Positions 8,912 through 43,656 are shown, counted from the stretch's first letter. The stretch is 64,000 nucleotides of DNA from an uncultured Actinomycetes bacterium (GCA_963740625.1 CAVUEV010000006.1:30957-94956); one strand, 5' to 3'. The notes: generated by a model not told the origin, from the letters alone. Program-made: numbers and translations.

Positions 8912-9515
8912 GTGTTCGTGACCGAGAGGCTGATCAACCGCCGCCAACAGGGGGACCTCGGCGAGACCTCCGCGATCGAGTGGCTGACGCGGCTGGGAGC
9001 CACCGTGTTCATTCCGCTTGGCCACAGTCCCGATGTCGATCTCGTCGCCGAGGTGAACGGCCGCCTCCTTCGGGTACAGGTGAAGACGTCGACGCAAGCT
9101 CACCAGGACCCCAGACGGGCATCTCCGATTCCTCGTCACACTGGCGACCAACGGCGGCAACCAGAGCTGGAACCGGGAGACGAAGAAGCTCGATCCCACG
9201 CGCGTCGACTACCTCTTCGCCCTCACTTCGGAGGGACGGCGATGGATGATCCCCTCCTCCGCGCTCGAAGCGCGCAACGCGCTGACCCTGGGGGGCCCGA
9301 AGTACTCGGAGTACGAGGTCGACGCGACTCGGCCGATCCGCCCGCTCGTTTACGCAGTCGAGTCGCCTCTAGACTCCGCGCCGACCGAGGGGGAGTATCC
9401 AAGCGGTCAACGGATGGCGACTGTAAATCGTCCGGCTCAGCCTTCGCAGGTTCGAATCCTGCCTCCCCCATCAGCGACGGCCGGCTGCGAGGCTCAACTC
9501 CGGCTGGCCGGATAA
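8912..9515 (+). pseudogene. PD-(D/E)XK endonuclease-like protein (PDDEXK_5-like), reading frame interrupted
   Basis: QQGDLGETSAIEWLTRLGATVFIPLGHSPDVDLVAEVNGRLLRVQVKTST matches the D..D/E.K core. After about 9105 the homologous continuation (TPDGHLRFLVTLATNGGNQSWN..VDYLFALTSEGRRWMIPSSAL) lies in the next frame. That frame has no stop until 9515 and runs across the tRNA. Confidence 0.55.
9389..9470 (+). tRNA. tRNA-Tyr (anticodon GTA), class II with long variable arm
   Basis: Hand-folded. Acceptor GGGGGAG/CTCCCCC, 3-bp D stem, anticodon loop CTGTAAA, T arm GCAGG-TTCGAAT-CCTGC, discriminator A. No encoded CCA. Confidence 0.9.
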
Positions 9516-28570: not shown

Positions 28571-29774
28571 TTAGCGCTTGGAAGGGATCTTCGAGTCCGC
28601 GCAGATGGCGTAGACGCGGATTTTCAGGTCGCCGCCGGCGAGGTTGTCGACCTCGGCCTCCCAGCCAGTGGCGCCGCCCTGAATGCGCGTGGCCGCGACC
28701 CGCTGGTCGAACCACCCGCCGTTGCTGAACACGCCTCCGCCGGTTACGTGCTGGCCGTTCGGGCAGTTCGCGTCGCCGGTCGTCCGCTCCTGGTGCGGAT
28801 TGCCGATCGCGTTCGACTCAACGACCGTGAGGGCGAGCGAGGGGATCGAGCCCGCCTCGCCCTGCGGTCCGGTCGGGCCCGTGGCCCCACGGGGGCCCTG
28901 GGGACCGCGCCGACCGCGGTGGTGGCGGTGCTTCGCGGCAACCTTCGCCGTGGGGGGCTTCAGCGTGCAGACCGGGTAGATCACGAGCGGCCCAGTGTCC
29001 GCCGTGACGCGGTCCTCGGCGCCAAACCAGCCGGATGTTCCGCTCGGCCCGGTGCTGTTCAGGTACGAGTGGTTGAACGGGCCGGGGGCCGACGCCCCGC
29101 CGCCGATTATCTGCTCGCCGTTCGGGCAATCCTTGAAGGCGGGCGTCTGGGTCTGCGGACCGGCGTCGAAGCTCGCAACCGGATAGTCGAGTTGAAGCGT
29201 CGAGGAGCCGGGATCCCCGCGCGGTCCCGCAGCGCCCTGCGGCCCCGGGGGGACCCGGCCGGCCGCGCTTCGAGTCCGCTACCCGAAGCGAACGCGCCTG
29301 ATGGCTTTTCGCCGGGCAAAGCTGGCCCAGGCAAACGACCGTCGATGGAGCGCAGATCGCGTGGACCGTGAAGGTGCGAACGATCGTGTCGTTGACGTTG
29401 TCAACGTAGCCGGTCCAGGAGCTGCCGTCGCGGGCAGGGAAGCTCGAGTTCACCCACTGCGTGAACTTGCCTCCGCTCGTGATCACGCCCCCGCCCGTCA
29501 CGTGCTCACCGGCAGGGCAGGTGGCAGTTGCGAAGTTCTGCTTCCCGGGAGCGTTGTTCACTGGCCCCGTCTTGACGTAATCGAGCGCGATTCCCCCGGG
29601 CTTGCCGGGAAGCCCCTTCGGGCCCGTCGCGCCCTGTGGTCCGGGCCGCCCCCGTGGGCCGCGCTTGCCGTCGCCGGCGGCCGCCAGCGCAACCCCCGCC
29701 AGCACCATCACCGCGACGAGCAGGGACGCGAGGGTCGCGCGGCCCAGGCGGCTTCGATTCGAGGTCCCGCTCAT
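28571..29774 (-). pseudogene. secreted three-module collagen-like / CPxG-TGGG domain protein, one frame interruption
   Basis: Signal peptide from ATG 29774. Modules carry CPAGEHVTGGGV, CPNGEQIIGGGA and CPNGQHVTGGGV. The frame changes inside a Gly-X-Y run at 29243-29246; removing one base gives an uninterrupted KRGRPGPPGPQGAAGPRGDPG. Confidence 0.8.
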
Positions 29775-29784
29775 CGCATTCGAC

Positions 29785-30948
29785 CTACTCGGGAAGCTCC
29801 GATGGAGCGCAGATCGCGTAGACCCGGAAGCTCCACTCCTGTTTTCCGAAGTTGTCGATGTCCACTTCCCAGCCGGTGGCACCGCCTGTGGGGCGAGAAG
29901 CGCCGACGTCCTGCTGGTCCCAGGGGCTGAAGCTCGCCACGCCGCCGCCGGTCACGTGCTGGCCGCTGGGGCAATCGACGTGCGCGGTGATGCGCGTGTT
30001 GACGGGGTTCGTGACCGTGCGGGTCTCATAGGTCAGTGGGAGCGAGGAGATCGACCCAGGCGCCCCCTGCGGGCCCGCCGGGCCGGTCGCGCCCTGAGGG
30101 CCCTTGGGCCCGCGCCGCCCATGGTGATGATGCCGCCCGTGCTTCGCCTCGATGCCCCGCGCCCGCTTGGCAGTCGGGGGCTTCGGCGTGCAGATCGGGT
30201 AGACGACAAGCGGCCCGGGGGTCTCGGCCACGCGGTCCTCCGCCCCGAACCAGCCGTCCGTGCCGCTCGGACTGGTGCTGTTCAGGAACCCCACATGGAA
30301 GTCACCGGGCGCCGAGGCGCCGCCACCGATTACCTGCTCGCCGCTATCGCAGGGGGCCGTGGAGGAGGTCTGCTGCCGACCTGCGGCGTCGACTGTCCTG
30401 AGCGGATAGTCGAGCTGCAGCGTTGACGAGCCCGGGTCCCCGGCCGGGCCCGGCGGTCCTTGGGGACCGCGCGGCCCCCGGCGCCCGCGCTTGGCCTGCC
30501 GGATCTGGCCGGCCTTGGGCGAGGCGGCCTGCGACGGCGCGCAGATCGCAAAGACCGAGAACGTCTTGGCGGTCCCGGTGTAGTTGTCCACGAAGACGCG
30601 CCAGACCTGGCCGTCGTCCGCCGGGAAGCTCGAGTTCACGCCCTGCTGTCCGAAGGCGCCGTCGGCGAGCACGCCACCGCCGGTGGCGTGCTCGCCTGCG
30701 GGGCAGGCGGCCTCCCCCAGCGTCTGCTGCGCCGGGACATTCGTGATCGGGCCGCTCTTCACGTAATCGAGCGCGATTGCGCCCGGCTCCCCGTCCGGCC
30801 CCTTCGGCCCCTGTGCGCCCGGCGGGCCCTGCGGGCCGCGGGGCCCGCGCTTCGCCTCGGCGAGCGTCGCTCCCGCCATCACCAACGCGGCGAGGATCAG
30901 CGCCAGGCCCAGACGCCAGGGAGCGATTCGCTTCGACGGACGGTCCAT
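29785..30948 (-). CDS. secreted three-module collagen-like / CPxG-TGGG domain protein
   Basis: Signal peptide. Three units of a basic linker, 5-9 Gly-X-Y triplets and a roughly 95-aa domain (CPAGEHATGGGV..FAICAP; CDSGEQVIGGGA..YPICTP; CPSGQHVTGGGV..YAICAP). His-rich linker AKHGRHHHHGRRGPKGPQG. Confidence 0.85.
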   Translation of the reverse strand: MDRPSKRIAPWRLGLALILAALVMAGATLAEAKRGPRGPQGPPGAQGPKGPDGEPGAIALDYVKSGPITNVPAQQTLGEAACPAGEHATGGGVLADGAFGQQGVNSSFPADDGQVWRVFVDNYTGTAKTFSVFAICAPSQAASPKAGQIRQAKRGRRGPRGPQGPPGPAGDPGSSTLQLDYPLRTVDAAGRQQTSSTAPCDSGEQVIGGGASAPGDFHVGFLNSTSPSGTDGWFGAEDRVAETPGPLVVYPICTPKPPTAKRARGIEAKHGRHHHHGRRGPKGPQGATGPAGPQGAPGSISSLPLTYETRTVTNPVNTRITAHVDCPSGQHVTGGGVASFSPWDQQDVGASRPTGGATGWEVDIDNFGKQEWSFRVYAICAPSELPE

Positions 30949-30964
30949 GGCTCGCGCGCCGATC

Positions 30965-33900
30965 CTAGTCGCCCTCGACCGAGTCCGACTTCACGCACAG
31001 GGCGATCACCTGGGCCGTCTGCGGGTTGCCGCTGACCGCGTCGATGAAGCCCTGCCAGCTCTCGCCATCCGGGCCCGGAAAGCTCGAGGCGACCTCCTCC
31101 TGGCGGTAGGTGCCGCCAACGCGGATGCCGCCACCGGTGACGTGCTCGCCGGCCGGACAGTCCACTCTGGCGAACACCTTCGCGCCGGGCTGCCCGATCT
31201 GGTTCGGGCCGGGATCCACGAAGACGTTCTTGAAGACCGTGTGGATCACGATCGGCGGCGTGACCCCATCCGGGCCCGTGGCGCCCTGCGGCCCGGTGGC
31301 GCCCTGCGGTCCCTGCGGTCCCGGCGGCCCCCTCCGGCCGCGATGGTGGCGGCGATGATGGCGACCGTGGTGCTTGGCCACCCGATCGCCGCCGGCTCGG
31401 CTCGGTGCGGCGTCAGGCTCGTTGGTCAGGTTCGACCGCACGCAGACCGCGTAGACGGTGAATGGGAGGTCCTTATCGGAGAAGTTGTCGACGAAGACCT
31501 GCCACTTGGTGGTTCCAAGCGCCGTGCTGCCGTTGATCCACTGCTCCTTGAGCGCTCCGGAGTTGAGGACGCCGCCCCCGGTGACGTGCTCGCCCTTCGG
31601 ACAGGCGACGGTGCCGCTCGACTGGGCCTGAGGCGCCGCCGTGAAGATCTTGCTCACATAGCGCAGGGAGACCGCGCTGGGCCCCGCTGGCCCCTGGTTG
31701 CCGCGCGGCCCGGTCGCCCCGCGCGGCCCGGCCGGCCCCTGCGGCCCGCGCTTGCCGCTCGCGGCCGTCGAGCTCGCCCTGACCTTGCTGGCCGTGCCGA
31801 TGGTGCAGATCGCCGTCACCTGAAAGCTCCCATCCGTGCCCTGGACGTTGTCGACGTCGCCGAGCCAGCCGTCTGGACCGATGGTCGAGCCGTTGATCCA
31901 TTGTTGCTCGAAGCCGCCCGAGGCGGCGACGCCGCCGCCGATCAGGACCTCGTCCTCGCCCGCGCAGCCTCGCTGGCCCTCCGACCGTGCGAGGCGTTGG
32001 GACGCGAACGTCTGCCTGTAGTAGCCGAGGGCCAGCGGCGCGCTCGCCCCGGCGGGGCCCTGCGGCCCGGGAGCGCCGGCCGGCCCCTGGGGACCCTGCG
32101 GTCCTCGCGGGCCGCGCTTGCCCGAGTCCGCGCCCGATGCCGCAGCGCCGAACGTCACCGCGAGGAGCGCCACGAGGATCCAGTGCGGCCCGACGAAGCA
32201 CGTTCCCGAGCCGCTGTTGGAGTTGTTGCCCTCGTTGCTCTCGGCGACGACGTTGGTGGCGTCCGCAACCGCGGTCGCGCTGTCGCTGCCGTCTCCGCAA
32301 CCCACAGAGACGGTCGTGCTCGCGCCCGCCGCCAGGGCCGCGGTGTCGATGAGCGTCGAGGGGCCGTTGTCCTGGCTGATCCGCGTCTTGCTCGGCCCGG
32401 CGTCACCGTCTCCGATGTTCTTCACCGTCGCCGAGATCGTCCCGCTCGCCCCGGTGCCGGTCACCGACACGTTGGTGACGGTCAGGTCCGGCCGCGTCGA
32501 GGCACAGGTGACCGGCGCGCTGGCCGCATTGTTGAACTCGTTGCTCTCGGCGACCGCGTTCGTGGCGTCGGCGCGTGCGCTGACCGTGATCTGGTTCGGG
32601 CCGGGGCACGCGAGGAACACGGTCGTCGACCCGCCGGGATTGAGCGCCGGCGTATCGGCCTGGCTCTCGGCCCCGCCGTCGAAGCTGTAGCCGAGCGCGC
32701 TCGCGCTCGCGGGCGCCCCGCCGACGTTGCGGACGACGACGGCGATCGAACCCGGGGACCCCGTGATCGAGTCGACGATTAGATCGGGGGTGGCGGGCGG
32801 CGGCGGGGCGGTGCAGTTCGCGCTCGCACGTCCGAATTCGGCGTAGCGGATGTCCTCAAAGTCGTTCGGGGTCCGTGAGCCGGGAACGCCCTTCTTGCTC
32901 GCCGAGCCGGTGCTGACGAAGCACTGCGGCTGGCTCGGATCCGATGCGAGCCCGAGGTAGTCGTTCTCGGTGCTGCCCACCAAAGATGCCCGGCCGCCCT
33001 TCGAGATCAGCGCCGTCGCCCAGTCGACCAGGAAGCCGACGGCGTAGGACGGGTAAAGGGCCGGGCCGCCGTACTCGTAGCCGACCGCGAGCTGGCCGGC
33101 CGTGTTCGCGCGAACCTGCGGCAGCGCCGCGCCGAGACCGTCGAACTCGATGCTGATGCCCGCCACCCGCTTCAGCGGCCGAATGTCGCTGTTGATGAAC
33201 ACGAAGGTCAGCGCCGGCTGGTCGTGAACGTGGACCGTCTCCGTCTTACCGTCCTTGACGACCCGCGCGTCGCGACCGGACATCCATCCGAAGACCAGCG
33301 TGTTGCCGACCTGGGCCCCGGTCTCGACAACCCCGACCTGCTTGCTGTAGCGCGACATCCAGTCGACCCCCAGCGGGTCGTTGCTGCCCTTTCCCTGGGT
33401 GGGGATCGAGGAGACGTCGACCTCGTGGATCTGGACGTCGCCGCTTCCGTCCGGCCACTCGAAGACCTGGAGGCGGCTGGTGCTCGCCGCCCCACCGAAC
33501 CACTGGGTCCGGGGCGCCTTCTTACTCGTGAACGCGCCCTGCGCGGGCCGGACCTTGCCGACGTCCGAGCTCGGGACGAGCAGCCAGTTGTAACTGAACT
33601 GTCCGGCACCGAGCTTGGTGACCGGGATCCGCCACATGGCGGTGCCCAGGAAGCCGCCCTTCTTGCATTTCTTGCTGCGGTAGCCGCTCGCGGTCACGTA
33701 CAGGTTCGCCCTGGTGAACGCGATGTGGGGCCGATCCAGAAACGGCTGGATCGTGCTCCTGCCCGCTGACGTGCCCGCGCACTTCGTGGGGAAGCGGAAA
33801 TTCGCCGGCGTCCAGTCCGAGTAGGTCCAGCGCGTGCCCCCGGAGGCGAGGAACTGGGCTGTGGTCGCGGAGGCGATTCGGACGACATTCGACTTGCGGT

Positions 33901-34649
33901 CGTTCGCCACGCCGCCAGCCCCGGCTCGGTACTGAAGGACCCAGACGAACCGGTGCACCCGCGGGATGTAGGCGACCACCTGGTCGCAGCAGAAGCCGCC
34001 CGCGGCGTTCGGGAACACCCGTCCCGGGTCGAGCGGCGTGAACGTGTTGCCGCCATCGGTCGAGTAGGCGTCCTGGAAGTTGCTGGTGACGAAGACCGTC
34101 TGGCCCGTGGTGGCGACGCTCGACTCGCCGCCGTCGGTGTCCGACCAGCCGGCGAGCCCGCTCGCCCTGAGGCTCCTGCTGCGGGCCACCCCGATGTCGC
34201 CCACCTTCGGGATGCCCGCCGACTTGCCCTCGGGCTCCTCCGAAGGCGTCGGGGTGGGAGTCTCCTGCTGCTTCGGCTGCGCGATCAACGGGCCGGCGGG
34301 AAGCTTCGGGGCGCTCTCCTCTCCGGGATCGCCCTCGTCCTCGTCGCCACCGCTCTCCGGCGGCTCCGGGTACGGCCCGTTGGCGACGTGCTGGGAGGTG
34401 TCGGCTGTGAACGTGGACGGCCACTCGGTCGGTCGTGCGGTCCCGCGGGCACCGCGCCGGACTCGGCGAGAAGCCGTGCCGCTTGCTGTTTCGGTGCCGC
34501 ACGCGCCGGCACTTGCGGTTGCCGTGATGCCGGTGGTGGTGATGATGGTGGCGATGCTTCGCGACCGGCGTGGGGCTCGCCTGCGCGGAGAACGCGGCGA
34601 CCGCGGTGATCGCCGCGACCAGCAGGCCAAGGATGAGGCGCCTCTCCAT
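30965..34649 (-). pseudogene. large secreted protein: His-rich N-terminus, Asp-box (BNR-like) region, 2x CARDB, then a three-module collagen-like / CPxG-TGGG unit; frame interrupted near the 5' end
   Basis: The signal peptide and His run (MERRLILGLLVAAITAVAAFSAQASPTPVAKHRHHHHHH) start at 34649 in a different frame from the 1308-aa ORF, joining near 34430-34470. YSTDGGNTF Asp-box. Two PDL.V...V.N.G....ESNE.NN CARDB-like domains. Modules CAGEDEVLIGGGV, CPKGEHVTGGGV, CPAGEHVTGGGI. Confidence 0.7.
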
Positions 34650-34670
34650 TGCTCGAACCCTGCACCAGGG

Positions 34671-34703
34671 GCGTTTCCGTACCGTTTCCCTTGCGTTTGC
34701 GTC
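34671..34703. promoter_or_regulatory. three direct heptamer repeats with exact 11-bp phasing (GCGTTTCCGTA / CCGTTTCCCTT / GCGTTTGCGTC)
   Basis: Located in the 90-bp divergent region between the ATG at 34649 (minus) and the ATG at 34740 (plus). CGTTT starts at 34672, 34683 and 34694. Confidence 0.4.
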
Positions 34704-34739
34704 CGACCCCGGCCGGGCTCTGGCTCTAGGATCACATCA

Positions 34740-37015
34740 ATGGCAGGCGGCCAGCCACCGCTCGACAGGGCCCAGGGGGAGCTCGGCAGCGCCCTCCCCG
34801 CGTACGAGATCGGCGCGATCCTCGGGAGTGGCGCGTTCGCCGTCGTCTTCGCGGCGCGCCACCGCAGCCTGGATCGGGAAGTGGCGATCAAGGTCCTGAC
34901 GCCTGCGCTCGTGGCGGACGAGGAGGCGCGCGAGCGCTTCGCCGTCGAGGCGCGGCTGCTCGCCTCGCTCGATCACCCGCACGTTGTGCGCGTCTACGAC
35001 TACGTGGACACGGAGTCCGCCTGCGCCCTGGTCATGGAGCGGATGCGAGGGGGCACGCTGGCGGATCGCCTCAAGCTCGGGCGGATGCCGGTGCCGCGCG
35101 CCTGCGCGATCACGGTCGCGGCGCTTCACGGCCTCGAGCACGCCCACCGCCACCGGGTGCTGCATCGCGACATCAAGCCCGAGAACCTGCATCTTCGCCG
35201 AGCGAGAATCTCCTCAAGGTCGCCGACTTCGGGATCGCCAAGATGCTCGGCGCCGGCGGCGCGCGGCTGACGGCGACGGCCGGCCGGCCCGGGACGCCCG
35301 CGTTCATGGCTCCCGAGCAGGTCTCCTCGTCGCTCGGCCCGCTCTCGTCGGCAACCGACGTGTGGGCGATGGGCGCCGTGCTCCACGAGCTGCTGGCGGG
35401 GGTGCCGCCGTTCGCGGACACCCAGGAGGTCGGCGAGGCGCTGCTGCGCCGAGTAACGAGCTCGCCGCCCGCACTCGACGGAGATCGCGCCGGACGTGCC
35501 CGCGCCGCTCGCGGCCGTCGTCTCGCGGGCGCTCCAGCTCAAGCCCGTTGACCGCTACCCGACGGCGGCCGGGTTCGCCGACGCCCTCGAGGAGGCCGCC
35601 GCCGATGCACTCGGCCCGGGAGCGATCGCGGCGACCGGGGTCCCGATTCACCGCACCGAGCCGGTCGAGGCTCCCCCGGACCGGCCGACGCTCGTCGAGA
35701 ATTCCCCCGGGGACCTGATGCCGCCCCCGAAACCCCCAGATGCCGCAGACGCACCTGGGCGCTGCTCGGCGCGGGCGTGGCGGCGGCCGTCGTCGTCCTC
35801 GTGATCCTGCTGGCTGGCGGGGGCGACGGAGGAACCCCGAGCGCACTGGCAGCGCTGCCCTCCCCTCCGCCGGGCTGGCCCACGGACATGGCGCTGAGCT
35901 ACGTCGATCCCATCGACGGGCCCGCCGGCGTGGCGAAGCGGCTTGGCCCGGGAGCCTCGACATGGGGGCTCTTCGACGGTGACGCGGCCGCGAAGACGGA
36001 CTGGAGCCATGATCCGAAGCGCGTCCCGGCCGACTTCGTGCGCAAGTCCGTGCGGGCTGGCGTGTTTCCCTACGCCATCTACTACGGCCTGCGGGCCCTG
36101 GGCCGAAGCGGCCACGCGGACGCCGAAGCCCCCCAGATGAGAAAGACGCTCGTCGACCGCGGACTCATGCGGATCTACTGGGGCAACGTCCGCAAGCTCC
36201 TGCGCTCCCTCGGCTCGACCCACGAGCCGGCGGCCGTGACGATCGAGTCGGGGATGTTCCCCGAGCTCGAGCAGCAGGTCCTCTTCAGCGGCCAGCGGCC
36301 CGAGAGCGTCCAGGCCGTGGTCGGCAGCTCGGGCCTGCCCGAGCTCAAGGGGCTGCCCGACAGCCTCCTCGGATTCGCGCAGGCGTGGCGCGCGCTTCGC
36401 GACCGCTACGCCCCGAAGGTCCTCCTCGGCGTCGAGCTCGACGACTACGGCGACAACGTCGACATCTCCCGCGACCTGCCACCGAAGCCCACGCTGCTGG
36501 CGGCGGCCGATGGCGTCGGCGCCTTCTACCTGGGCGTCGCGGCGAACGACTTCGACTACGCGGGGTTCGAGATGTCCTATTCGGAGGAGGGCGAGAACCC
36601 GAGCCGCACCGAGATCTACTCGACCGCTGAGAAACAGGGCGTGGTCAACTTCGTCCGCGAGTTCGTGCGCCGCGCCGGGATCCCGGTCGTGATCGACAGC
36701 GTGCCGACCGGCAACACCGCCTCGCGGGCGATCACCGACAAGCCCTACCACTGGCGTGACAGCTGGATCCAGTGGCTGGTCGGCGACGACCGGTTCTCGG
36801 GGCTCACCGCGTTGCGCGACGCCGGCGCCATCGGGGTCGTCTTCAGCGCCAGCACCGGGCCCGACGGCACCTGCCCGTGCGATGCCGCCCACGACGGCGT
36901 CACGAACGGCGGGAAGTTCGGCTCACCCTCGACGTCGGCCGACGACGACGGCGGCTACCTCGCCGAGCGGGACGCCGCGATGCAGAATGCGGGCGGCATG
37001 CCCTTGCGCCCATGA
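34740..37015 (+). pseudogene. receptor Ser/Thr protein kinase (Hanks type) with single TM and about 400-aa extracytoplasmic domain; at least 4 frame interruptions
   Basis: GSGAFAVVFAA..AIKVL, HRDIKPENL, LKVADFGIAK, GTPAFMAPEQ, then RCRRRTWALLGAGVAAAVVVLVILLAGG (TM) and a large C-terminal domain. The pieces lie in the frames of ORFs 34080.., 35243.., 35496.. and 35777... Confidence 0.8.
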
Positions 37016-37210: not shown

Positions 37211-38485
37211 ATGAACGGCTTCGGGCGGAATCCAGATCTGCGTCGGCGATTCAGCGACCGCGGAGGGCGCCTGCTCACCGCCTCACTCCTGCTTACGCTT
37301 GCGATCGCCTGCGTGGCCTGGAGTAGCGCCGGCGCGATGCCCGCAAAGCACGGCCGCCATCACCACCACCACAAGCCGAAGCCCGGACCGCGAGGGCCGC
37401 GCGGCGCAACCGGCCCTCAGGGCCCGGCGGGGCCCGCGGGCGCGGGGTCGATCGCGCTCACCTACGTGAGCGCGACGCAGCCCATTCCTGCAAACAGCGA
37501 AGCGGTCAAAGGGGTGCCCTGCCCCCCAGGGCAGTACGCGACGGGAGGCGGCGTCTCCTCAGACGGTGTCTTCAACCAGGTCTACCTGTTGGCCGGGGTG
37601 CCGACTTCCAACACCGGCGCCTGGTACGGAGCCGTGGATAACCGCGACGACGCGACGCACAACTACACGGCGTGGGGTGTCTGCACGCCCCCGTCGACCG
37701 TTACGCAGCCGCCCAAGCCGCAGGCCGCCGGGAGGAGCGTACGGGCAAAGGCCGGGCCACCCGGTCCGCAGGGACCGCGCGGAGCCACCGGGCCACAGGG
37801 CCCACCGGGGCCCAACGGGACCGGCCAGCTCTCGCTGACGTACGTGACCAAGAACGTCACCCCGCAGGCGAACGGCAACGCTTCGGGCACTGCGACCTGC
37901 CCGGCGGGCCAGCACGTCACCGGCGGCGGCGTGAGCTCACCCGCCGACTTCCAGCAGCAGTGGATCACCGACAGCGCGCCGAGCGCGGGCGGGACCGGCT
38001 GGACCGCGGCGGTAGACACGTTCGGCCCCTCCCAGCAGTTCGTCGTCCACGCGATCTGCACAACGTCGACGGTGACGACCATGAAGTTCAAGTCGCTGGC
38101 CGCCGCCCGCCGCTTCTTCGCACGCGAGCCGGCTGCGAAGCGCGGCCCGCGCGGTCCCAGGGGGCGGCGCGGCGCGACTGGGCCGCAGGGCACGCCCGGG
38201 CCATCGACGTCCCTGAGCACGATCCCGCTCACCTACGTCCTCGCCGAGGACGTCCCCGCACCGCACGGGACGCAGAGCGCCGGCGACGTGCAGTGCCCGG
38301 CGGGCCAGAACCTCACCGGCGGCGGGGTGTCCCCCGACGGACTCCACAACGAGAACGCCGTGAACTCCCTCTTCCCGAAGGACCCGGGGACCTGGTCGGC
38401 CGCCGTGGACAACTCGGGCCAGGCCAACGGTGAGAGCTTCGACGTGATCGGGGTCTGCACGCCCTCGACGGTGACCAAGCGCTAA
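37211..38485 (+). CDS. secreted three-module collagen-like / CPxG-TGGG domain protein
   Basis: Signal peptide, AKHGRHHHHHKPKPGPRGPRGATGPQGPAGPAG. Modules with CPPGQYATGGGV..WGVCTP, CPAGQHVTGGGV..HAICT, CPAGQNLTGGGV..IGVCTP. Confidence 0.85.
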   Translation: MNGFGRNPDLRRRFSDRGGRLLTASLLLTLAIACVAWSSAGAMPAKHGRHHHHHKPKPGPRGPRGATGPQGPAGPAGAGSIALTYVSATQPIPANSEAVKGVPCPPGQYATGGGVSSDGVFNQVYLLAGVPTSNTGAWYGAVDNRDDATHNYTAWGVCTPPSTVTQPPKPQAAGRSVRAKAGPPGPQGPRGATGPQGPPGPNGTGQLSLTYVTKNVTPQANGNASGTATCPAGQHVTGGGVSSPADFQQQWITDSAPSAGGTGWTAAVDTFGPSQQFVVHAICTTSTVTTMKFKSLAAARRFFAREPAAKRGPRGPRGRRGATGPQGTPGPSTSLSTIPLTYVLAEDVPAPHGTQSAGDVQCPAGQNLTGGGVSPDGLHNENAVNSLFPKDPGTWSAAVDNSGQANGESFDVIGVCTPSTVTKR

Positions 38486-38614
38486 GCCTGGGGTCGCGGC
38501 TTACCAAGGCTCGCGAAACGCCACTCTCGGCCGCGCCGCGGAATCGAAGCGGCCACGATCCAGAAACGGGATAGGGTCAAGATCGCGTGCCTGAAGGCAA
38601 CCTCTGAGGTGGGA

Positions 38615-39868
38615 ATGAACAGCACCAGGCGGAATCCAGATCTGTGGCAGCGAAGCGACCGGGGAAAGCGTCTTTTCGTCGCTGTGTTTGCGCTCTCCGT
38701 TGCGGTCGCCTGCGTCGCCTGGACGAGCGCGGGAGCGGCGCCCGCGAAGCACGGCCACCATCATCATCATCACCACCACCACAAGCCGAAGCCCGGACCG
38801 CGAGGCCCACGTGGCGCGGCCGGTCCTCAGGGCCCTGCGGGCCCGGCCGGCGCCGGCTCGCTTGCGCTCACCTATGTCAGCTTCACCTCCTCGCCGGCAG
38901 ACGACGAAGGAGTTCAGCCGAGGGACTTCGCCTTCGCGAAGGCCTTCTGCCCGAACGACAACCAGATCGCCACCGGCGGCGGAGTTACGTCGGACGGGAC
39001 CGTGAATGACCCGGTCTACCTCGAAGTGAGCGTTCCGCAGGCTGGCGGAGGCTGGTTCGGAGCGGTCGAGAACCGCGGCGATCAGCCTCACTCCTTCACC
39101 GTCTGGGCCGTGTGCACTCCTGCGACGTTGACCCAGGCAAAGGCAAGTTCCAAGACAGGACCTCCCGGGCCGCGCGGGCCCCGCGGCGCGACCGGCCCAT
39201 CCGGACCGCCGGGGGCAGCCGGTACCGGGCAGGTCTCGCTGGCCTACGTCGCGAAGCAGGTGCCGGCACAAAGCGGCAACACCACGGGGACGGCCACCTG
39301 CCCGGCGGGCCAGCACGTGACTGGAGGCGGCGTCGGGTCGGAGGCAACGGTCGGCAAGCAGTGGGTCACCGACAGCGCCCCGACGGCGGACCGGACGGGC
39401 TGGACCGTGTCAATGGACAACTTCGGCGCACAGCCGCCATTCATCGTCCACGCAATCTGTACAGCCTCGACCGTGGTCGCCGGCCCGGCCGCCAAGTCAG
39501 CCGGCGCCAAGGACGCGAAGCGTGGTCCTCGCGGACCGAGGGGAAGTCGCGGCGCGACCGGGCCTCAGGGCCCTCCGGGCTCCTCTCCCCCGGTCGCCAC
39601 GATCCCATTGACCGAGGTCGCGGCTCCTGACATCCCCGCTCCGGCTCAGGCGCAGACCGCGGGCTCGGTCGACTGCCCGGCCGGCCAGCACGTGACCGGC
39701 GGAGGTTTCATCACGAACGCCAACACGAACAACCAGATGGCTGTCAACTCCTCCTTCCCCCAGGACTCGGACACCTGGCTCGTCGCCGCCGACAACACCA
39801 GCAACGCGGCGCTGAGCTTCGAAGCCGACGCGGTCTGCACGCCATCGCTCGTGGCTGCCAAGCGATGA
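38615..39868 (+). CDS. secreted three-module collagen-like / CPxG-TGGG domain protein
   Basis: ATG 38615 aligns with the paralog start (MNSTRRNPDLW versus MNGFGRNPDLR). AKHGHHHHHHHHHKPKPGPRGPRG. Modules CPNDNQIATGGGV, CPAGQHVTGGGV, CPAGQHVTGGGF. Stop overlaps the next ATG (ATGA). Confidence 0.85.
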   Translation: MNSTRRNPDLWQRSDRGKRLFVAVFALSVAVACVAWTSAGAAPAKHGHHHHHHHHHKPKPGPRGPRGAAGPQGPAGPAGAGSLALTYVSFTSSPADDEGVQPRDFAFAKAFCPNDNQIATGGGVTSDGTVNDPVYLEVSVPQAGGGWFGAVENRGDQPHSFTVWAVCTPATLTQAKASSKTGPPGPRGPRGATGPSGPPGAAGTGQVSLAYVAKQVPAQSGNTTGTATCPAGQHVTGGGVGSEATVGKQWVTDSAPTADRTGWTVSMDNFGAQPPFIVHAICTASTVVAGPAAKSAGAKDAKRGPRGPRGSRGATGPQGPPGSSPPVATIPLTEVAAPDIPAPAQAQTAGSVDCPAGQHVTGGGFITNANTNNQMAVNSSFPQDSDTWLVAADNTSNAALSFEADAVCTPSLVAAKR

Positions 39869-40446
39869 AGCGCATCCGCCCACATCTCACGTACGCGAAC
39901 GTCATGGTGACGCTGCTGGCGTTCGTGGTCCTCGGCGGCGGAGCTTGGGCGATCAGCACCAAGGCCCCGCGGAACTCGGTCAACTCGAAGGCGATCATCG
40001 ACGGCTCGGTGAAGTCGGCCGACGTCAAGGACAACTCGCTGACCGGGGCCGACATCGACCAATCGACGCTCTCCGGCGGTGGCGGTGGCAACGGCGGGCC
40101 GCCCAGCGGCCCGGCGGGTGGCGACCTCACCGGCAACTATCCGAAGCCACAGATCGCGGCGGGGGCCGTGGGCCCGAACCAGCTTCAGGCTCACTCCGTT
40201 CACGAGACCCAGCTCGGACCGATCATCAGGGTGCAAACGGAGAACCAGGGGAAGATAGCCGCCTCTGCGAAGTGCCCGGCGGGCTCGCAGCTGATCTCGG
40301 GCGGCGCATCGACCTCGAGCTCGAACTCCCCGCTGGTCGCCAGCTTCGCGAACTTCGACACCAACCAGTGGCAGGCGTTCGCCGCCTACCAGAACACCAA
40401 CGACCCCTACCTCGACCTCTTCGTCGACGCCTACTGCCTGCAGTAG
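39865..40446 (+). CDS. N-terminally membrane-anchored stalk protein with C-terminal CPAG-SGG domain
   Basis: HLTYANVMVTLLAFVVLGGGAWA anchor, SVNSKAIIDGSVKSADVKDNSLTGADIDQSTLSGGGGGNGGPPSGPAGGDLTGNYPKPQIA stalk, CPAGSQLISGGA ... YCLQ* head. Confidence 0.8.
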   Translation: MKRIRPHLTYANVMVTLLAFVVLGGGAWAISTKAPRNSVNSKAIIDGSVKSADVKDNSLTGADIDQSTLSGGGGGNGGPPSGPAGGDLTGNYPKPQIAAGAVGPNQLQAHSVHETQLGPIIRVQTENQGKIAASAKCPAGSQLISGGASTSSSNSPLVASFANFDTNQWQAFAAYQNTNDPYLDLFVDAYCLQ

Positions 40447-40457: not shown

Positions 40458-41036
40458 ATGCGAAAGCACCTCACGTTCGCCAATCTGGCCGCGGGGGCCG
40501 CGCTGTTCATCTCCCTTGGCGGCGGCGCCTACGCGATCGCCACCAAGGCGCCGCCGGACTCGGTCAACTCGAGGGCGATCGTCAACGGCTCGGTGAAGTC
40601 GGCCGATGTCAAGGACAACTCGCTGACTGGGACCGACATCGACCAGTCGACGCTGTCAGGTGGGGGAGGCAGCGGCGGGCCGCCCAGCGGCCCTGCCGGA
40701 GGCGACCTCGCCGGCAACTACCCGAAGCCGCAGATCGCCCCGGATGCGGTGGGCACGAACGCCATCCACGACGGCGCGATCTCCTCGGCGAAGCTGGGCA
40801 CGATAGTCACCGTGACCGCACACGTCGACATCCCACAGAACTCGACCCGCGACGCGTTCGCCACGTGCCCGAACGGGACGACGCTGATCAGCGGTGGGGC
40901 GAACGCCAATCCGACAAACATCGGCGTCACCCTCCAGGCGAGCTTCCCCAACGGCAAGATCTGGTACGGGAGGGCCGACAACCCCGCGACGGAGTTCAGC
41001 GGCGACCTCGACGTGTTCGCGAACTGTCTCCAGTGA
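40458..41036 (+). CDS. N-terminally membrane-anchored stalk protein with C-terminal CPNG-SGG domain
   Basis: Same conserved N-terminal roughly 95 aa as 39865..40446. Divergent head CPNGTTLISGGA ... NCLQ*. GGAG 8 nt before the ATG. Confidence 0.8.
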   Translation: MRKHLTFANLAAGAALFISLGGGAYAIATKAPPDSVNSRAIVNGSVKSADVKDNSLTGTDIDQSTLSGGGGSGGPPSGPAGGDLAGNYPKPQIAPDAVGTNAIHDGAISSAKLGTIVTVTAHVDIPQNSTRDAFATCPNGTTLISGGANANPTNIGVTLQASFPNGKIWYGRADNPATEFSGDLDVFANCLQ

Positions 41037-41049: not shown

Positions 41050-42003
41050 CTAGTTGTAAGACCCGAGCCCGTTGTTCAGCTCGGCAAGCCGAGCTGCCGG
41101 CGGTCTTCGACCGAGGGCGCCGTGGTTGCGCTTGAAGTTGTAGCGCCATAGCCAGCCCTCGAGGGCGGCGCTGCGCTCGGCGCTGTTTCGATAGATCGCG
41201 CCGTAGGCCCAGCCCGAGAGCATCGTGCGGATGAAGCGCTCAGCCTTGCCGTTGGTCTGCGGGCGGTAAGGCCGGGTGCGCAGGTGCCGCAGGCCGAGGG
41301 CTCGGCAGGCGATCGCGTGAACGGTTGAGACGTAGGCGGAGCCGTTGTCGGTCATCAGCGCCTCGACGGTGACCCCGTGACGACGGTAATGAGCCAGGCA
41401 GCGACGCAGGAAGCCGACCGCCGTCGTCGCCTTCTCGTCACCCAAGACCTCGACGTAGGCGAAGCGGGTGGCGTCGTCGACGCAGACGTGGACGAACTCC
41501 CAGCCGTGGCGGCCCTTGCCGGCGTGGCGGCCGCGCCCGCGCCCAAGAACCCGGTGACCGGGATGGTCGATGCGACCGAGCTTCTTGACGTCGATGTGGA
41601 TGAGCTCGCCGGGGCGCGAGCGCTCGTAGCGGACAGCGGGCTCCTGGCCGAGGCGGCCGAGCCTTCACATGCCGACTCGGGTGAGGATCCCCGAGACCGT
41701 GGTCTCCGCCATCGCCAGGACCTCGGCGATCTCGGCGCCGCTCATCCGCAGGCGCCGCAGCGCGCAGATCACGGCGATCCGGTCCTCGGGGGTGCGGTTG
41801 TGGACGCGGTGAGCCGCCGAGGGGCGGTCGTAAAGGCCGGCCTCACCCTCGGCGCGGTGGCGGGCGACCCACTTGCGGGCGGTCGGCTCGCTCGTCTCGG
41901 CGGCTCTCGCCGCCTCGACGAGCGAGAAGCCCTCCTCGTCGACTCGGTGGACCAGGAGCCTGCGCTTCTTCAGGCTGAGCGCAGCGTTAGCGTGGAGCTT
42001 CAT
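41050..42003 (-). pseudogene. IS481-family DDE transposase with an in-frame TGA
   Basis: N-terminal HTH (MKLHANAALSLKKRRLLV...), RYERSRPGELIHIDVKKLGRI, MTDNGSAY, and an rve C-terminus (RPYRPQTNGKAERF). One frame throughout, but a TGA at 41665-41667 splits it. The final TAG lies in the flanking CTAG. Confidence 0.8.
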
Positions 42004-42087
42004 CCGGTTGCCTCCTTGGGGCTGGGTGGGGTAGACACCCCCAGCCTTCAAGGGGGACCGGATGAAACAACGGGCTCAGGGATTACA
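41055..42087 (-). mobile_element. IS481-family insertion sequence (1033 bp) with 6-bp target duplication GCTAGT
   Basis: Terminal inverted repeats TGTAAGACCCGAGCCCGTTGTT (left) and TGTAATCCCTGAGCCCGTTGTT (right, reverse complement). Direct repeats GCTAGT at 41049-41054 and 42088-42093. CTAG is a classic IS481 target. Confidence 0.85.
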
Positions 42088-42088: not shown

Positions 42089-43225
42089 CTAGTTCCGCAG
42101 CGTCGTTCGGAATCGGTCCGCCGGGGGACTCGCCGCTCCTGGGGCACGGAACAGCAGCTTCTCGTTGCCGAGCTCGACGACGTCGCGGTCCTGAAGCGAA
42201 ATCTCGGCCCCAGGCGCGACTGGACTGCCGTTCACGCGGGTGCCGTTGGTGCTGAGATCGACGAGCACGACTCCGCCCTCGCCGTCGCGGCGGAGCTCCA
42301 GATGCTCGCGTGAGACGGTGGGGTCGTCGAGCACCAGCCGGCGCGACGGGTCCACCCGGCCGCACTCGCGGCCGACGAGCAGCATCGGCTCGATCTGAAC
42401 CACCCACTCGCGCGGGCTCCCGGGGTCAACGACCACCCAGGCCTCTTGCCCGCCCGAGAGAGCACCGCTGCGCAGCAACCGGTCGTGCAGCTCGACGAGG
42501 CGCGGGCTCGGAGCGGTGCCGAGCTCCTCGCGCAGAAGCTGCCGGAGGTCCTCGAAGACCCGCATCGCCTCCGGAACGCTGCCCCGCCTGGCGAGCGCCG
42601 TCATCAGCAGCCGCTGGCCCGTTTCGCGAAGCGGCGAGCTCACGATGATCTCGCGGGCGGCATCGACCGCGACGCCGAGCTCGGCCTCCCCGAGCCCGAG
42701 GGACGCCTCCGCGAGGCACTCGAGGGCGCGCAGCCGATGCTCCGCGATCTGCTCGCGCCGCTCCTCCACCCACGGTCCCTCGAGCCCGACGCAGAAGCCG
42801 CCGCCGGTTACGTCGGAGGCGCGTTCCGCGGCCGAGCGCGCTGCCCGCCAGTCGGATGCGGCAAGGGCGCGTTCGGCGTCGTCGAGCTTCGCCACCGCCT
42901 CCTCCAAGTCGATGGTCGTCTTCGTCGGCAGCCGCAGCTCGAGGGAGGCCTTGCCCTCCAGGGCCTCCGGACCCAGCGCCCGGCGCAGCTTCGAGAGCTG
43001 CGTGCGAAGCGCCGCGTCGGGATCCGGGGGCCGCCGCTCGGGCCAGAGCAACTCGAGCAGCTCATCGCGGCCGACCTGGCGCTCGCGGTTGTCGACCAGG
43101 TAGGCGAGGAGCAACCGCCCCTGCCGCCCGGACGCCTCGGTGTCGACGCGCCTGCCGCCGATCTCGACGCGCAGCTCGCCGCAGAGGCGTGCGTATGAGG
43201 AAGCACCGCTGCCCGCCATCACCAT
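42089..43225 (-). CDS. EmbR-like regulator: OmpR-type winged helix + BTAD (SARP) + C-terminal FHA domain
   Basis: RLLLAYLVDNRERQVGRDELLELLW (wHTH), BTAD region (LMTALARRGSVPEAMRVFEDLRQLLREELGTAPSPRL), FHA (LLVGRE..VSREHLEL..DLSTNGTRVNG). Confidence 0.85.
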   Translation of the reverse strand: MVMAGSGASSYARLCGELRVEIGGRRVDTEASGRQGRLLLAYLVDNRERQVGRDELLELLWPERRPPDPDAALRTQLSKLRRALGPEALEGKASLELRLPTKTTIDLEEAVAKLDDAERALAASDWRAARSAAERASDVTGGGFCVGLEGPWVEERREQIAEHRLRALECLAEASLGLGEAELGVAVDAAREIIVSSPLRETGQRLLMTALARRGSVPEAMRVFEDLRQLLREELGTAPSPRLVELHDRLLRSGALSGGQEAWVVVDPGSPREWVVQIEPMLLVGRECGRVDPSRRLVLDDPTVSREHLELRRDGEGGVVLVDLSTNGTRVNGSPVAPGAEISLQDRDVVELGNEKLLFRAPGAASPPADRFRTTLRN

Positions 43226-43326
43226 CAGGTTTTACAGAAACGTTTTGGACACGTTCCTGAGAGAGGCGACCGCAAGGATTAGCCCATGCGATTCGCACGT
43301 CGGAGTTACCGTGATCATCGGCCTGA

Positions 43327-43644
43327 TTGCGTCGCTCGGTCCTGGCTCCGGCCTGGCTGCCTCTGGCAAGGCCGACGAGCACGACGATCAAGGTCGCCGC
43401 GCACACCGGCAGCGCCGTCGCGGGGAAGCTCAAGTCCTCGCGGGCGAGCTGCAAGGACGGCCGTGTCGTCAAGCTGAAGCGCAAGCAGCCCAGCAGCGCT
43501 TCCGTCGAGGGCTCGGCGGTGAGCGAGGCGAACGGGAGGTTCGAGATCGTCGGCGCCTTCGTTTCGTCGAACAAGTACTACGTCACCGTGGGACCGGAGG
43601 GAAGCTGTAGCGGCGCCCGCTCGGACTACTTCGGGATCGGTTAG
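43327..43644 (+). CDS. small hypothetical (probably secreted) protein; N-terminus unresolved
   Basis: The C-terminal part (KDGRVVKLKRKQ..EANGRFEIVGAFVSSNKYYVTVGPEGSC) looks like a real beta-rich protein. A plausible signal peptide is spread over two other frames upstream (43286-43330). Confidence 0.4.
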   Translation: MRRSVLAPAWLPLARPTSTTIKVAAHTGSAVAGKLKSSRASCKDGRVVKLKRKQPSSASVEGSAVSEANGRFEIVGAFVSSNKYYVTVGPEGSCSGARSDYFGIG

Positions 43645-43656
43645 CGAGGGAGGGAG

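Follow-up and report, generated by a model that had tools for sequence, protein, structure and literature searches.

We describe a gene cluster in an uncultured high-GC soil actinomycete whose products are predicted, from structural models, to be collagen-stalked head proteins with PCSK9-like heads. Their building block is a module of ~85 aa with six to seven beta-strands and two invariant Cys, features that are either observed directly or predicted with confidence, and the models predict that modules pack in threes around a threefold axis as a double-layered beta-prism of the PCSK9 V-domain/APCbeta type. This would place a bacterial three-copy unit in a rare beta-prism whose only other solved examples so far come from human PCSK9 and from malaria and Toxoplasma perforin-like proteins. 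We tentatively prefer, at somewhat short of even chances, a reading in which these are Sec-exported extracellular collagen-stalked proteins and each chain packs its three modules into a single threefold prism head, giving a lollipop.

Domain copies and gene organization

A six-frame HMM scan of the window (the whole 64,000-nucleotide stretch of DNA analyzed) finds exactly 19 copies of the two-Cys domain between 28.6 and 47.2 kb (E 2e-8 to 5e-29), with no further copy above noise anywhere in the window. Nine are on the minus strand at 28592-32044, six are on the plus strand at 37442-39847, and four are in single-domain proteins; the other 15 belong to five three-module proteins. Both Cys are invariant and spaced 52 to 55 residues apart, and the motifs CPxG..(V)TGGG, NSS.P...W..VDN, and F.V.AIC recur. 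A sequence-only reading of this DNA had arrived at the same count (15 plus 4), the two conserved Cys, and the same motifs, and all of these hold, with the domain length shortened from its ~95 aa to ~85 aa.

The five proteins are built as three repeats of a basic or His-containing linker, 7 to 9 Gly-X-Y (GXY) triplets, and a domain. Gene 1 (28571..29774, minus strand) codes for a signal peptide and three such modules, with GXY runs at 29589..29669 (GKRGPRGRPGPQGATGPKGLPGKPGGI), 29201..29264, and 28844..28915 and domain copies at 29343..29600 (E 4.6e-29), 28958..29206 (E 2.8e-21), and 28592..28846 (E 5.7e-27). Gene 2 (29785..30948, minus strand) is intact and codes for 387 aa with a signal peptide and three modules; its GXY runs are at 30775..30846, 30424..30486, and 30049..30120, and its domain copies are at 30532..30786, 30181..30429 (E 1.4e-20), and 29800..30051 (E 3.1e-27). 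Gene 3b (30965..32201, minus strand), the three-module part of a long ORF, has its own signal-peptide-like segment (ILVALLAVTFGAAASGA), GXY runs at 32042..32122, 31676..31756, and 31259..31339, and domain copies at 31796..32044 (with a degenerate motif, CAGEDEVLIGGG), 31433..31681 (E 2.4e-28), and 30986..31216 (E 2.3e-20). The upstream part of that ORF, gene 3a (32202..34649, minus strand), codes for a signal peptide, a His run, an unassigned region of ~500 aa, and two CARDB domains.

On the plus strand, gene 4 (37211..38485; 424 aa) codes for a signal peptide, His5, and three modules, with GXY runs at 37385..37447, 37754..37825, and 38144..38206 and domain copies at 37442..37693, 37820..38068, and 38213..38467. 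Gene 5 (38609..39868; 419 aa) codes for a signal peptide, His9, and three modules, with GXY runs at 38795..38857, 39158..39229, and 39524..39586 and domain copies at 38852..39124 (motif CPNDNQIATGGG), 39224..39469, and 39593..39847. The single-domain proteins are also encoded on the plus strand: a1 (39865..40446; domain at 40195..40443, E 1.9e-13), which has an N-terminal hydrophobic leader, a Gly-rich segment, and one domain; a2 (40458..41036; domain at 40785..41033, E 1.6e-17); a3 (45979..46602; domain at 46345..46599, E 2.3e-8); and a4 (46610..47200; domain at 46955..47197, E 8e-13), which has a relative, P0003, on L001.

Frameshifts and gene integrity

The minus-strand genes had been described as three, separated by only 10 and 16 nt; the spacing is right (29775-29784 and 30949-30964), but gene 1 is frame-broken and gene 3 is probably two genes, with an indel joining 3a to 3b. 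No single intact ORF covers gene 1: within the C6 run at 29247-29252, a +1 frameshift divides the second GXY run of this gene between two frames, and module 1 is read in one frame, modules 2 and 3 in another. The division of gene 3 follows from the signal-peptide-like segment of 3b, its GTG at 32201, which is off by one frame, and its orthologue P0005, a stand-alone gene of 414 aa; the signal-peptide ATG at 34649 is out of frame with the long ORF (30965-34891).

Because gene 1 and the 5' end of gene 3 are frameshifted, the cluster could consist of decaying pseudogenes or be an assembly artifact without function, which we consider extremely improbable. Intact genes include 2, 4, and 5 as well as the four small ones, and intact orthologues occur in several other assemblies, those of gene 5 on L001 and L002. 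GC3 is still 0.87 past the gene 1 frameshift, and removing one C from the C6 run restores perfect GXY register. The adjacent kinase and S8 peptidase genes are likewise split while a 90%-identical kinase on L009 is intact, which points to indel errors, and the frameshifts in gene 1, gene 3, and the neighboring genes look like assembly indels.

Predicted fold of the modules

Modeled alone with AlphaFold, module 1 of gene 2 reaches a pLDDT of 96.7. In the full-length gene 2 model the modules exceed pLDDT 95, and the pTM of 0.75 requires a fixed arrangement of the three; one third of the chain is low-confidence linker, and the GXY runs have a pLDDT of only 45 to 67. The only significant PDB structural matches of this model (Foldseek) are the PCSK9 C-terminal V-domain, which is the best (E 1.7e-8; TM 0.63 over the complete 222-aa domain of 7anq_A), and the apicomplexan APCbeta domains of PvPLP1 and TgPLP1 (E 4e-7 to 9e-6).

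The PCSK9 V-domain (Cys/His-rich; 2p4e, 7anq) similarly arranges three tandem beta-sandwich modules of ~75 to 85 aa in one chain with pseudo-threefold symmetry. It differs in being eukaryotic, fused to a subtilase, and without collagen runs, and no sequence similarity to the module is detected (no Pfam or PDB sequence match); PCSK9 modules have three disulfides each, versus one Cys pair in the bacterial module. APCbeta (TgPLP1, 5ouo/6d7a; PvPLP1, 7pln) shares three direct repeats of ~80 residues in a pseudo-threefold, double-layered beta-prism, with conserved Cys joining the two layers. In PDB sequence searches, three different profiles also rank TgPLP1 APCbeta first, with a CPxG..V.GG motif equally placed in each repeat and both Cys and the ~89-residue period in alignment, although at E 0.004 to 0.15 this match is not significant. 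APCbeta further differs in its poor global superposition (TM 0.25 to 0.39, rmsd 11 to 13 Å), two disulfides per repeat, an attached MACPF pore-forming domain, and a Trp-tipped loop that binds membranes. Guerra et al. 2018 (PMC6294395) describe PCSK9 and APCbeta as the only double-layered beta-prisms known.

Resistin/RELM proteins also carry a homotrimeric head on a fibrous N-terminal stalk, although in resistin the stalk is formed by an alpha-helical coiled coil rather than collagen, and resistin is absent among the Foldseek matches of the single-module model. According to the title of PDB entry 2qtw, structural homology links the PCSK9 C-terminal domain to resistin; this is the relationship that we propose between single-module and three-module forms, and the link is indirect.

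The sequence-only reading had likened the alternation of triple-helix-prone segments and compact heads to phage fibers and to C1q or Bcl-type trimeric fibers. Threefold assembly survives from that comparison, but a C1q/TNF- or BclA-type head is rejected, the three-copy unit being predicted as a PCSK9 V-domain/APCbeta-type prism. BclA, the C1q/TNF family, and Scl1/Scl2 share with these proteins a signal peptide, a hydroxyproline-free GXY run, and a trimer-nucleating globular domain, but they differ in head fold, with no C1q, Scl, or BclA family match above cut-off here. The GXY runs here are also very short, each chain has three runs and three heads rather than one, and the LPXTG motif is missing. 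In prokaryotic collagen-like proteins, a single collagen region typically lies between non-collagenous domains (PMC8968730).

A large unnamed domain family

Searches of Pfam-A and NCBIfam with the domain return no match, in line with the failure of the sequence-only reading to place it in a named family, although a structural placement with the PCSK9 V-domain and APCbeta is now possible. Judged by its profile matches the domain is not rare but a very large unnamed bacterial family: at E<=1e-3 the 19-copy profile collects 8,979 cluster representatives, of which 2,037 remain at E<=1e-10, and all source names seen among the relatives are 'hypothetical protein'. Exactly three copies are present in 146 of the 150 best relatives, nearly all without collagen; other copy numbers among the best relatives are six (3 proteins), five (3, of which at least one, P0013, is N-terminally truncated), two (3), and one (2). 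We can say with confidence that the number of modules in a chain of this family is one, three, or six.

Each full-length collagen variant examined carries exactly three modules, and the GXY-plus-linker segment of these variants sits exactly where the non-collagen family has its inter-module linker of 6 aa. Position-specific HMMs do not assign the collagen-variant modules to positions 1 to 3 of the three-repeat family and place them nearer the single-module forms, as does a rough NJ tree without bootstrap support. The variants may thus have arisen by triplication of a homotrimerizing [GXY-module] unit.

Collagen-like runs and linkers

The 15 GXY runs are uninterrupted, 21 to 27 aa long (118 triplets in total), and each immediately N-terminal to a domain, in agreement with the alternation of collagen-like stalks and compact two-Cys domains noted earlier. 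Pro occupies 58% of X positions, and Arg, Gln, and Pro together occupy 59% of Y positions; every module in this lineage is preceded by 7 to 9 such Pro/Arg/Gln-rich triplets abutting its first strand. Pfam Collagen matches all five proteins, exceeding its curated cut-off only in gene 2. The linkers are basic (+2 to +6) with up to 10 His, again as first described, and most modules are acidic (pI 4.1 to 5.1) while linkers and GXY runs are basic.

It is unlikely, in our estimate, that the GXY runs form no triple helix and instead link the modules of a monomeric beta-prism protein as flexible, Pro-rich, cationic loops or spacers, for example as tentacles that bind polyanions or metals. The shortness of the runs, their lack of hydroxyproline, the low AlphaFold confidence within them, and a linker geometry that is awkward in both helix models discussed below would fit such spacers. 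Gly at every third position with zero interruptions argues for a helix, however, being maintained among paralogues 33 to 37% identical and in relatives from several MAGs (on L001, L002, L007, and L009), as do X positions rich in Pro and Y positions rich in Arg/Gln, a composition typical of stable bacterial collagens, and the up to 23 triplets ahead of a single module in relatives. Gly-Pro-Arg triplets stabilize the collagen helix.

One head per chain or a fiber of beads

For the five three-module proteins we tentatively favor one head per chain. The prevalence of three-copy relatives and the compact gene 2 model suggest that the three beads of one chain may form a single head. By symmetry, the three GXY runs would meet on one face of the prism, which would nucleate a short (6 to 8 nm) hydroxyproline-free collagen triple helix and hold its register, so that the runs of one chain make, at least partly, a single stalk. 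The Lys/Arg/His-rich linkers would return to the far end of this stalk and gather there, and the protein would look like a lollipop rather than beads on a string, with the four single-domain paralogues as homotrimeric versions of the head. Such proteins could display an acidic threefold binding head on a cationic stalk able to grip anionic envelope polymers or metal ions, in which case they would be surface-coat or adhesion proteins. The single-head arrangement is further supported by GXY run lengths that vary together in each chain (permutation p 0.0004; 0.009 on five lineages), by the three modules common to the full-length collagen variants, and by the position of the GXY-plus-linker segment.

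Several observations run against this arrangement. Linker 2 is only 11 to 16 aa in about half of the proteins and spans 40 to 56 Å when fully extended, versus 60 to 77 Å for a triple helix of 21 to 27 aa, and, judged by eye, longer GXY runs do not come with longer linkers. A basic linker beside a basic helix is electrostatically unfavorable. Gene conversion between repeats could explain the GXY length covariation, and the compact gene 2 model may be inherited from 56 non-collagen sequences in its alignment.

The trimeric beads-on-a-string fiber of the sequence-only reading keeps its threefold assembly, but its beads may be one compact head. In such a fiber, three parallel chains would pair like GXY runs, with each module a homotrimeric prism, and the product, stalk-bead-stalk-bead-stalk-bead, would be an extracellular fiber or surface nap; we regard it as a serious rival, somewhat less likely than one head per chain. 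Single-module collagen-stalked relatives (L003-L006: a leader, 5 to 23 GXY triplets, and one module) show, from their layout, a [GXY-module] unit that would be self-sufficient in homotrimerizing, their module being able to serve only as a homotrimeric head. A fiber is also consistent with the grouping of collagen-variant modules with these forms, with strict periodicity along whole GXY runs even though many linker 2 segments could not reach along an in-chain helix, and with acidic beads that basic linkers could wrap. The E. coli prophage collagen-like proteins EPclA-D provide a precedent, being reported (PMC3368898) to form homotrimeric fibers in which one chain interleaves collagen runs with trimeric non-collagen domains; unlike the modules here, those domains are of different types. 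Against a fiber are the compact monomer model, the within-chain covariation of GXY lengths, and the constancy of exactly three modules in diverged lineages and dominance of 1, 3, or 6 in the family, which would be unexpected for independent beads. The face bearing the module termini is inferred from symmetry and strand parity, and the 6-aa linkers of the non-collagen family suggest that N and C termini share it; if so, a linker in the fiber must travel ~55 to 75 Å around the bead, for which 11 to 16 aa are too short.

Export, phage relationships, and genomic context

N-terminal signal peptides are present and, together with the modular build, bear out the proposal of secreted modular proteins. 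A search for LPXTG motifs in the proteins and a Pfam search for SLH find neither, consistent with the earlier report of no sortase signal and no S-layer homology motif. The four small proteins, called anchored in the sequence-only reading, have AxA motifs after the hydrophobic segment (GGGAWA|IS, GGGAYA|VS); these are possible signal-peptidase sites, and the proteins may be secreted rather than anchored.

The cluster might also be a remnant of a phage tail fiber or tailocin receptor-binding protein cluster, which we judge very improbable. PHROG tail-fiber families match at E 1e-7 to 1e-12, but nearly all of these matches sit on GXY runs; three reach partly into the module (phrog_6320 in genes 4 and 5 and phrog_34916 in gene 5, E 1.5e-3). 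In BFVD, the single-module model bears a weak resemblance to tip domains of phage fibers or baseplates (best E 1.6e-3, TM 0.5 to 0.65), and it matches the R2 pyocin fiber at E 0.9. However, tblastn of the module against 50,697 phage records finds no match, a pattern scan of IMG/VR finds no relative, and no phage structural, lysis, or integration genes are near the cluster, where an IS481 remnant is the sole mobile gene; the cluster differs from EPclA-D and from phage fibers with collagen segments in its lack of phage context and of module homologues in these phage collections, and the earlier statement that phage genes are absent is upheld. The flanking genes are housekeeping in character (topA, tmk, holB, a Ser/Thr kinase, and regulators), and the loci of relatives, between dnaK-grpE-dnaJ and clpB or beside fusA, likewise argue against a phage origin. 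Gene 5 is paired with a single-domain gene in three MAGs, a conserved arrangement.

Collagen-like proteins and domain copies in the cluster

The window has a GC content of 70%, and genes were identified by codon-position GC. Gene 1 (28571-29774), gene 2 (29785-30948), and the long open reading frame of gene 3 (ending at 30965) follow one another on the minus strand with gaps of 10 and 16 nt, both as reported in the sequence-only reading of this locus, and genes 4 (37211-38485) and 5 (38609-39868) are on the plus strand. That reading also counted 19 copies of a two-cysteine domain, and a motif scan followed by a search with an HMM built from the copies recovers exactly 19 in the whole window, with E values of 2e-8 to 5e-29; the next-best matches elsewhere in the window are all at E>0.2. 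The two cysteines described as conserved are invariant in 19/19 window copies and lie 52 to 55 residues apart, and the accompanying motifs are present, although the copies align over ~85 residues rather than the ~95 proposed. Signal peptides are present on the proteins. Those of genes 4 and 5 include a cysteine (LAIAC and VAVAC), but a lipoprotein lipobox was rejected on reading these segments, as the -3 position does not fit.

Two gene models proposed previously need amendment. Gene 1 was described as one of three consecutive genes with three modules, but a C6 run at 29247-29252 carries a +1 frameshift, and removal of one base restores the Gly-X-Y (GXY) register. Gene 3 was taken to be one gene, but its signal-peptide ATG (34649) does not share the frame of the long open reading frame, and a further signal-peptide-like segment belongs to the three-module part, where a GTG at 32201 is off by one frame. 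The orthologue of this part (P0005) is a stand-alone gene directly adjoining a kinase on a related contig, L009. The 5′ end of gene 3 (34400-34649) is also split by a frameshift, as are the S8 peptidase gene (43688-44736, plus strand) and the Ser/Thr kinase gene by the cluster (34740-37012, plus strand; frames 3/?/3/2), the L009 orthologue of which is intact (756 aa, 90% identical). Because these neighboring genes are also split, the L009 kinase is whole, and the related contigs are long-read soil metagenome-assembled genomes (MAGs; e.g., “uncultured Actinomycetes bacterium MFD04944.bin.2.133”), the frameshifts fit indels of long-read MAG assembly rather than pseudogenes or other biology. A large secreted protein is encoded at 32202-34649 (minus strand), upstream of the three-module part of gene 3 or joined to it, and comprises a signal peptide, a His6 run, ~500 unassigned residues, and a pair of CARDB domains. 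L009 lacks this protein at the corresponding site, and the three-module gene there lies directly against the kinase.

In genes 1 to 5, 15 domain copies are each directly preceded by an uninterrupted GXY run of 21 to 27 aa, with 118 triplets in total. Pro occupies 58% of the X positions, and Arg, Gln, and Pro together occupy 59% of the Y positions, such that the runs have the unbroken, Pro-rich pattern of collagen-like proteins. The collagen family model PF01391 scores 38.8 bits in gene 2 (cut-off, 27.2) and 24 to 26 bits in genes 3 to 5, below the cut-off because the runs are short. Gly-Pro-Arg triplets stabilize the collagen triple helix, and by their composition these Pro/Arg-rich runs would be compatible with a hydroxyproline-free helix. 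They have pLDDT values of 45 to 67 in an AlphaFold monomer model of gene 2, and we consider it improbable that they are simply non-helical spacers. The linker before each run is positively charged (net +2 to +6) and contains as many as ten His residues, and the modules are mostly acidic (pI 4.1 to 5.1).

A sixth collagen-like protein is encoded at 18647-19660 (plus strand). Its leader is similar, with a hydrophobic segment plus LITGHDIKNGSLRGKDL, and is followed by 8 GXY triplets (18854-18925) and a C-terminal head of ~240 aa with no Pfam match and no CPxG domain; this organism therefore puts different heads on short collagen stalks.

The domain and its predicted fold

The domain had been left without a named family, and this holds for the sequence databases: the window copies and ten more distant relatives have no Pfam-A or NCBIfam match except Collagen and CARDB, the domain itself matches nothing in Pfam even at E<=10, and all source names encountered are “hypothetical protein.” The domain can, however, now be placed structurally, as a predicted fold of the type in the PCSK9 V-domain and the APCbeta domain of apicomplexan perforin-like proteins.

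A single module modeled with AlphaFold2, using an alignment of the 19 window copies only, is all-beta with seven strands, of which the first two are short (pLDDT 96.7). Foldseek found nothing significant for it in the PDB (best E 0.86) and, in BFVD, a weak likeness (best E 1.6e-3, TM 0.5-0.65) to tip domains of phage fibers or baseplates. The full-length model of gene 2, from a 70-sequence alignment, has modules with pLDDT >95 and a pTM of 0.75; since this is reached despite ~135 of 387 residues (the linkers and GXY runs) being in the 45-67 pLDDT range, the three modules have a defined mutual arrangement in the model. It was only this three-module model, and not the single module, that was informative with Foldseek, giving 29 matches at E<=1e-3, all from two proteins: the PCSK9 C-terminal domain (E 1.7e-8; TM 0.63, normalized on the complete 222-aa domain of 7anq_A) and APCbeta of Plasmodium vivax PLP1 and Toxoplasma PLP1 (TgPLP1; E 4e-7 to 9e-6). 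In APCbeta, three repeats of ~80 residues form a beta-prism, and each repeat is a 4+2 sandwich held together by conserved disulfides (PMC5943054). This “double-layered beta-prism” is reported to resemble a single other known structure, the PCSK9 V-domain (PMC6294395), and in a limited literature search the TgPLP1 paper was the only one to mention it. The gene 2 prediction likewise has three ~80-aa beta-sandwich modules about a pseudo-threefold axis.

Comparison of sequences points to APCbeta more faintly. TgPLP1 APCbeta is the top PDB match of three domain profiles (A2, A3, and A6), at E values of 0.0044 to 0.15 only; all three of its repeats contain CPxG..V.GG, and the second cysteine and a period of ~89 residues align. 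The cysteines of the window modules align with those of the TgPLP1 repeats, with one pair here versus two in APCbeta. PCSK9 was never matched by sequence in the profile searches. The predicted head thus belongs structurally with both PCSK9-V and APCbeta; we regard the assignment to this beta-prism fold as well supported by the models, and homology of the domain to APCbeta as no more than plausible.

Relatives in other genomes and metagenomes

Word-indexed homologue searches with domain profiles yielded three fragments each, and 1.84 billion cluster representatives had to be searched exhaustively with a profile. Matches at E<=1e-3 numbered 8,979 proteins, of which 2,037 reached E<=1e-10; pattern scans found one relative in GTDB genomes and four in JGI metagenomes. 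Exactly three copies are present in 146 of the 150 best relatives, and other copy numbers among the best relatives are six (three proteins), five (three), two (three), and one (two); at least one of the five-copy proteins, P0013, is N-terminally truncated. Typical members are secreted, collagen-free proteins of 280 to 310 aa with three copies joined by ~6-residue linkers. A GXY run ahead of every copy is seen in only 9/150 best relatives, the closest kin of the window proteins, and a third architecture at four metagenome loci has a hydrophobic leader, 5 to 23 GXY triplets, and one C-terminal copy. The two cysteines are invariant in 80/80 diverse copies. A faint precomputed match to the very recent Pfam family PF27479 (YjdH), which may hint at a link to Bacillus YjdH, occurs on 8 of 100 non-collagen three-repeat relatives; those listed, all outside the window, are P0015, P0142, P0211, P0217-P0219, and P0238.

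One chain or three

Module copies per chain are one, three, or six, and we propose that the module would always assemble three at a time, from three chains if single-module and from one chain if three-module. A similar relation between PCSK9 and resistin is indicated by the title of PDB entry 2qtw. Symmetry would place the three N-termini on one face of the prism, and as the GXY runs abut strand 1, three runs would converge there; they could then form a short triple helix of 60 to 77 Å, nucleated and kept in register by the prism.

For the five proteins with three linker-GXY-module units, the reading we favor, at slightly under an even chance, is that one chain makes one head with one stalk. 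The gene 2 model is compact, every full-length collagen variant examined has exactly three modules across lineages that are ~35% identical, and GXY lengths covary within chains (e.g., 18/18/18, 27/27/27, and 33/30; p 0.0004, or 0.009 on five lineages). However, an in-chain helix predicts that linker length scales with GXY length, and no such scaling is seen by eye; moreover, linker 2 has only 11 to 16 residues in about half of the proteins, which is too short for a return along the helix.

This short linker is also an argument for the homotrimeric string of beads originally proposed, and the basic linkers would suit wrapping of acidic beads. Single-module, collagen-stalked relatives exist, and in a rough neighbor-joining tree the collagen-variant modules group near them, with position-wise grouping of modules only partial. 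Nor do the collagen-variant modules clearly map onto positions 1 to 3 of the non-collagen family: bit-score differences are only a few bits, and most modules are “position 1”-like. The short linkers are nevertheless awkward for the homotrimer too if, as implied by linkers of 6 residues in the non-collagen family, both termini share one face, and we give this model appreciable weight while thinking it will probably prove wrong. The earlier description as extracellular, modular, threefold, and non-phage stands, but the beads-on-a-string arrangement is uncertain.

Taken to its full extent, the one-chain reading would make these proteins a natural single-chain collagen, in which three GXY runs of one polypeptide would double back to form an intramolecular, hydroxyproline-free triple helix nucleated and registered by a single-chain pseudo-threefold beta-prism, the Lys/Arg/His-rich return linkers would be a polyanion- or metal-binding foot at the distal tip, and the bacterial family would represent among prokaryotes, and may even have given rise to, a fold believed to be limited to PCSK9 and the perforin-like proteins of apicomplexans. 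We offer this complete proposal tentatively, and consider it rather unlikely to hold in all its parts.

Comparison with phage and surface proteins

Phage genes had been reported as lacking, and we find none at the locus; the neighbors are cellular, and searches of phage and viral contigs were empty. A tblastn search of the module against phage records gave no match, and a pattern scan of IMG/VR found 0 relatives. PHROG matches are nearly all confined to the GXY runs, the exceptions being phrog_6320 on genes 4 and 5 and, weakly, phrog_34916 on gene 5 (E 1.5e-3), which partially overlap a module. A phage tail fiber or prophage origin was rejected, with no module homologues in the phage searches and no adjoining phage structural genes. 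Sortase and S-layer anchoring signals were likewise said to be missing, and there is indeed no LPXTG motif and no SLH match in any of the proteins, the latter leading us to reject an SLH-anchored S-layer protein.

The proteins resemble C1q, BclA, Scl, and collagen-bearing phage fibers in kind, with a collagen stalk and a threefold head, but are not members of these groups: the family models fail, the head fold differs, and LPXTG is lacking. A C1q/TNF-like or BclA-type head, a C-terminal jelly-roll of ~130 aa, was rejected for want of a Pfam or NCBIfam match; the module has 85 aa and six to seven strands, and no C1q/TNF structure is among the Foldseek matches. The Scl1/Scl2 and Legionella Lcl adhesin models (NF038329, NF038330, and NF046116) were rejected at 10 to 31 bits versus cut-offs of 325 to 500, with scores falling on the GXY runs only. 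The arrangement of three stalk-head units per chain is an architecture absent from the domain organizations listed in a review of prokaryotic collagens (PMC8968730).

Possible roles and significance

The segregation of charge between an acidic head and a cationic, His-rich stalk suggests a stalk-displayed head, and thus a surface coat or adhesin that may adhere to anionic envelope polymers or metals. The PCSK9 V-domain binds partner proteins. APCbeta binds membranes (PMC5943054), and by analogy the head could also be a binding module. The ~9,000 unnamed sequence clusters would give a bacterial home to a beta-prism architecture that, in a limited literature search, is described solely from human PCSK9 and the perforin-like proteins of apicomplexans, and would allow the origin and general role of this fold to be examined in bacterial proteins that are easier to handle. 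The known nucleators of bacterial collagen helices would gain a new, very small (85 aa), putatively disulfide-stapled head, and if the helix is intramolecular, these proteins would be a ready-made single-chain collagen scaffold for biomaterials.

Genomic neighborhood

The cluster is located between topA-tmk-holB and the receptor-type Ser/Thr kinase, and also includes a BTAD-FHA regulator, the S8 peptidase, and a GH5 glycosidase. Its nine paralogous genes adjoin the kinase, protease, and glycosidase and are predicted to specify a lineage-specific extracellular structure of uncultured soil actinomycetes. Gene 5 and a gene for a single-domain protein are syntenic on a related contig (L001), as are the regulator, S8, GH5, and additional single-domain genes. 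A neighborhood conserved between the two (window 42089-47200, L001 5438-10222), with the regulator, S8, GH5, and two or three CPxG proteins of the single-domain type, may be a functional unit together with the collagen-variant genes. On L002, too, gene 5 is paired with a single-domain gene, and adjacency to the kinase is seen again on L009. L007, a 620-kb MAG contig that belongs, like L001, to metagenome assembly ERZ25039533, carries two collagen variants in tandem (6742-7968 and 8001-9194) between dnaK-grpE-dnaJ-hspR and clpB, and tandem duplication of such genes therefore recurs in the lineage.

An IS481-family transposase in two pieces on the minus strand (41050-41445 and 41665-42051; rve/rve_3 and LZ_Tnp_IS481/HTH) is inserted between a single-domain gene, a2, and the BTAD-FHA regulator. 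Elsewhere in the window, two adjacent plus-strand genes (4132-5364 and 5543-7738) code for long Glu/Ala/Arg/Gln-rich, coiled-coil-like proteins with ~45-aa repeats, the second of which ends in what appears to be a ComEA-like helix-hairpin-helix segment; these two repeat genes account for the unusual AT skew (0.27 to 0.33) at 4 to 8 kb.
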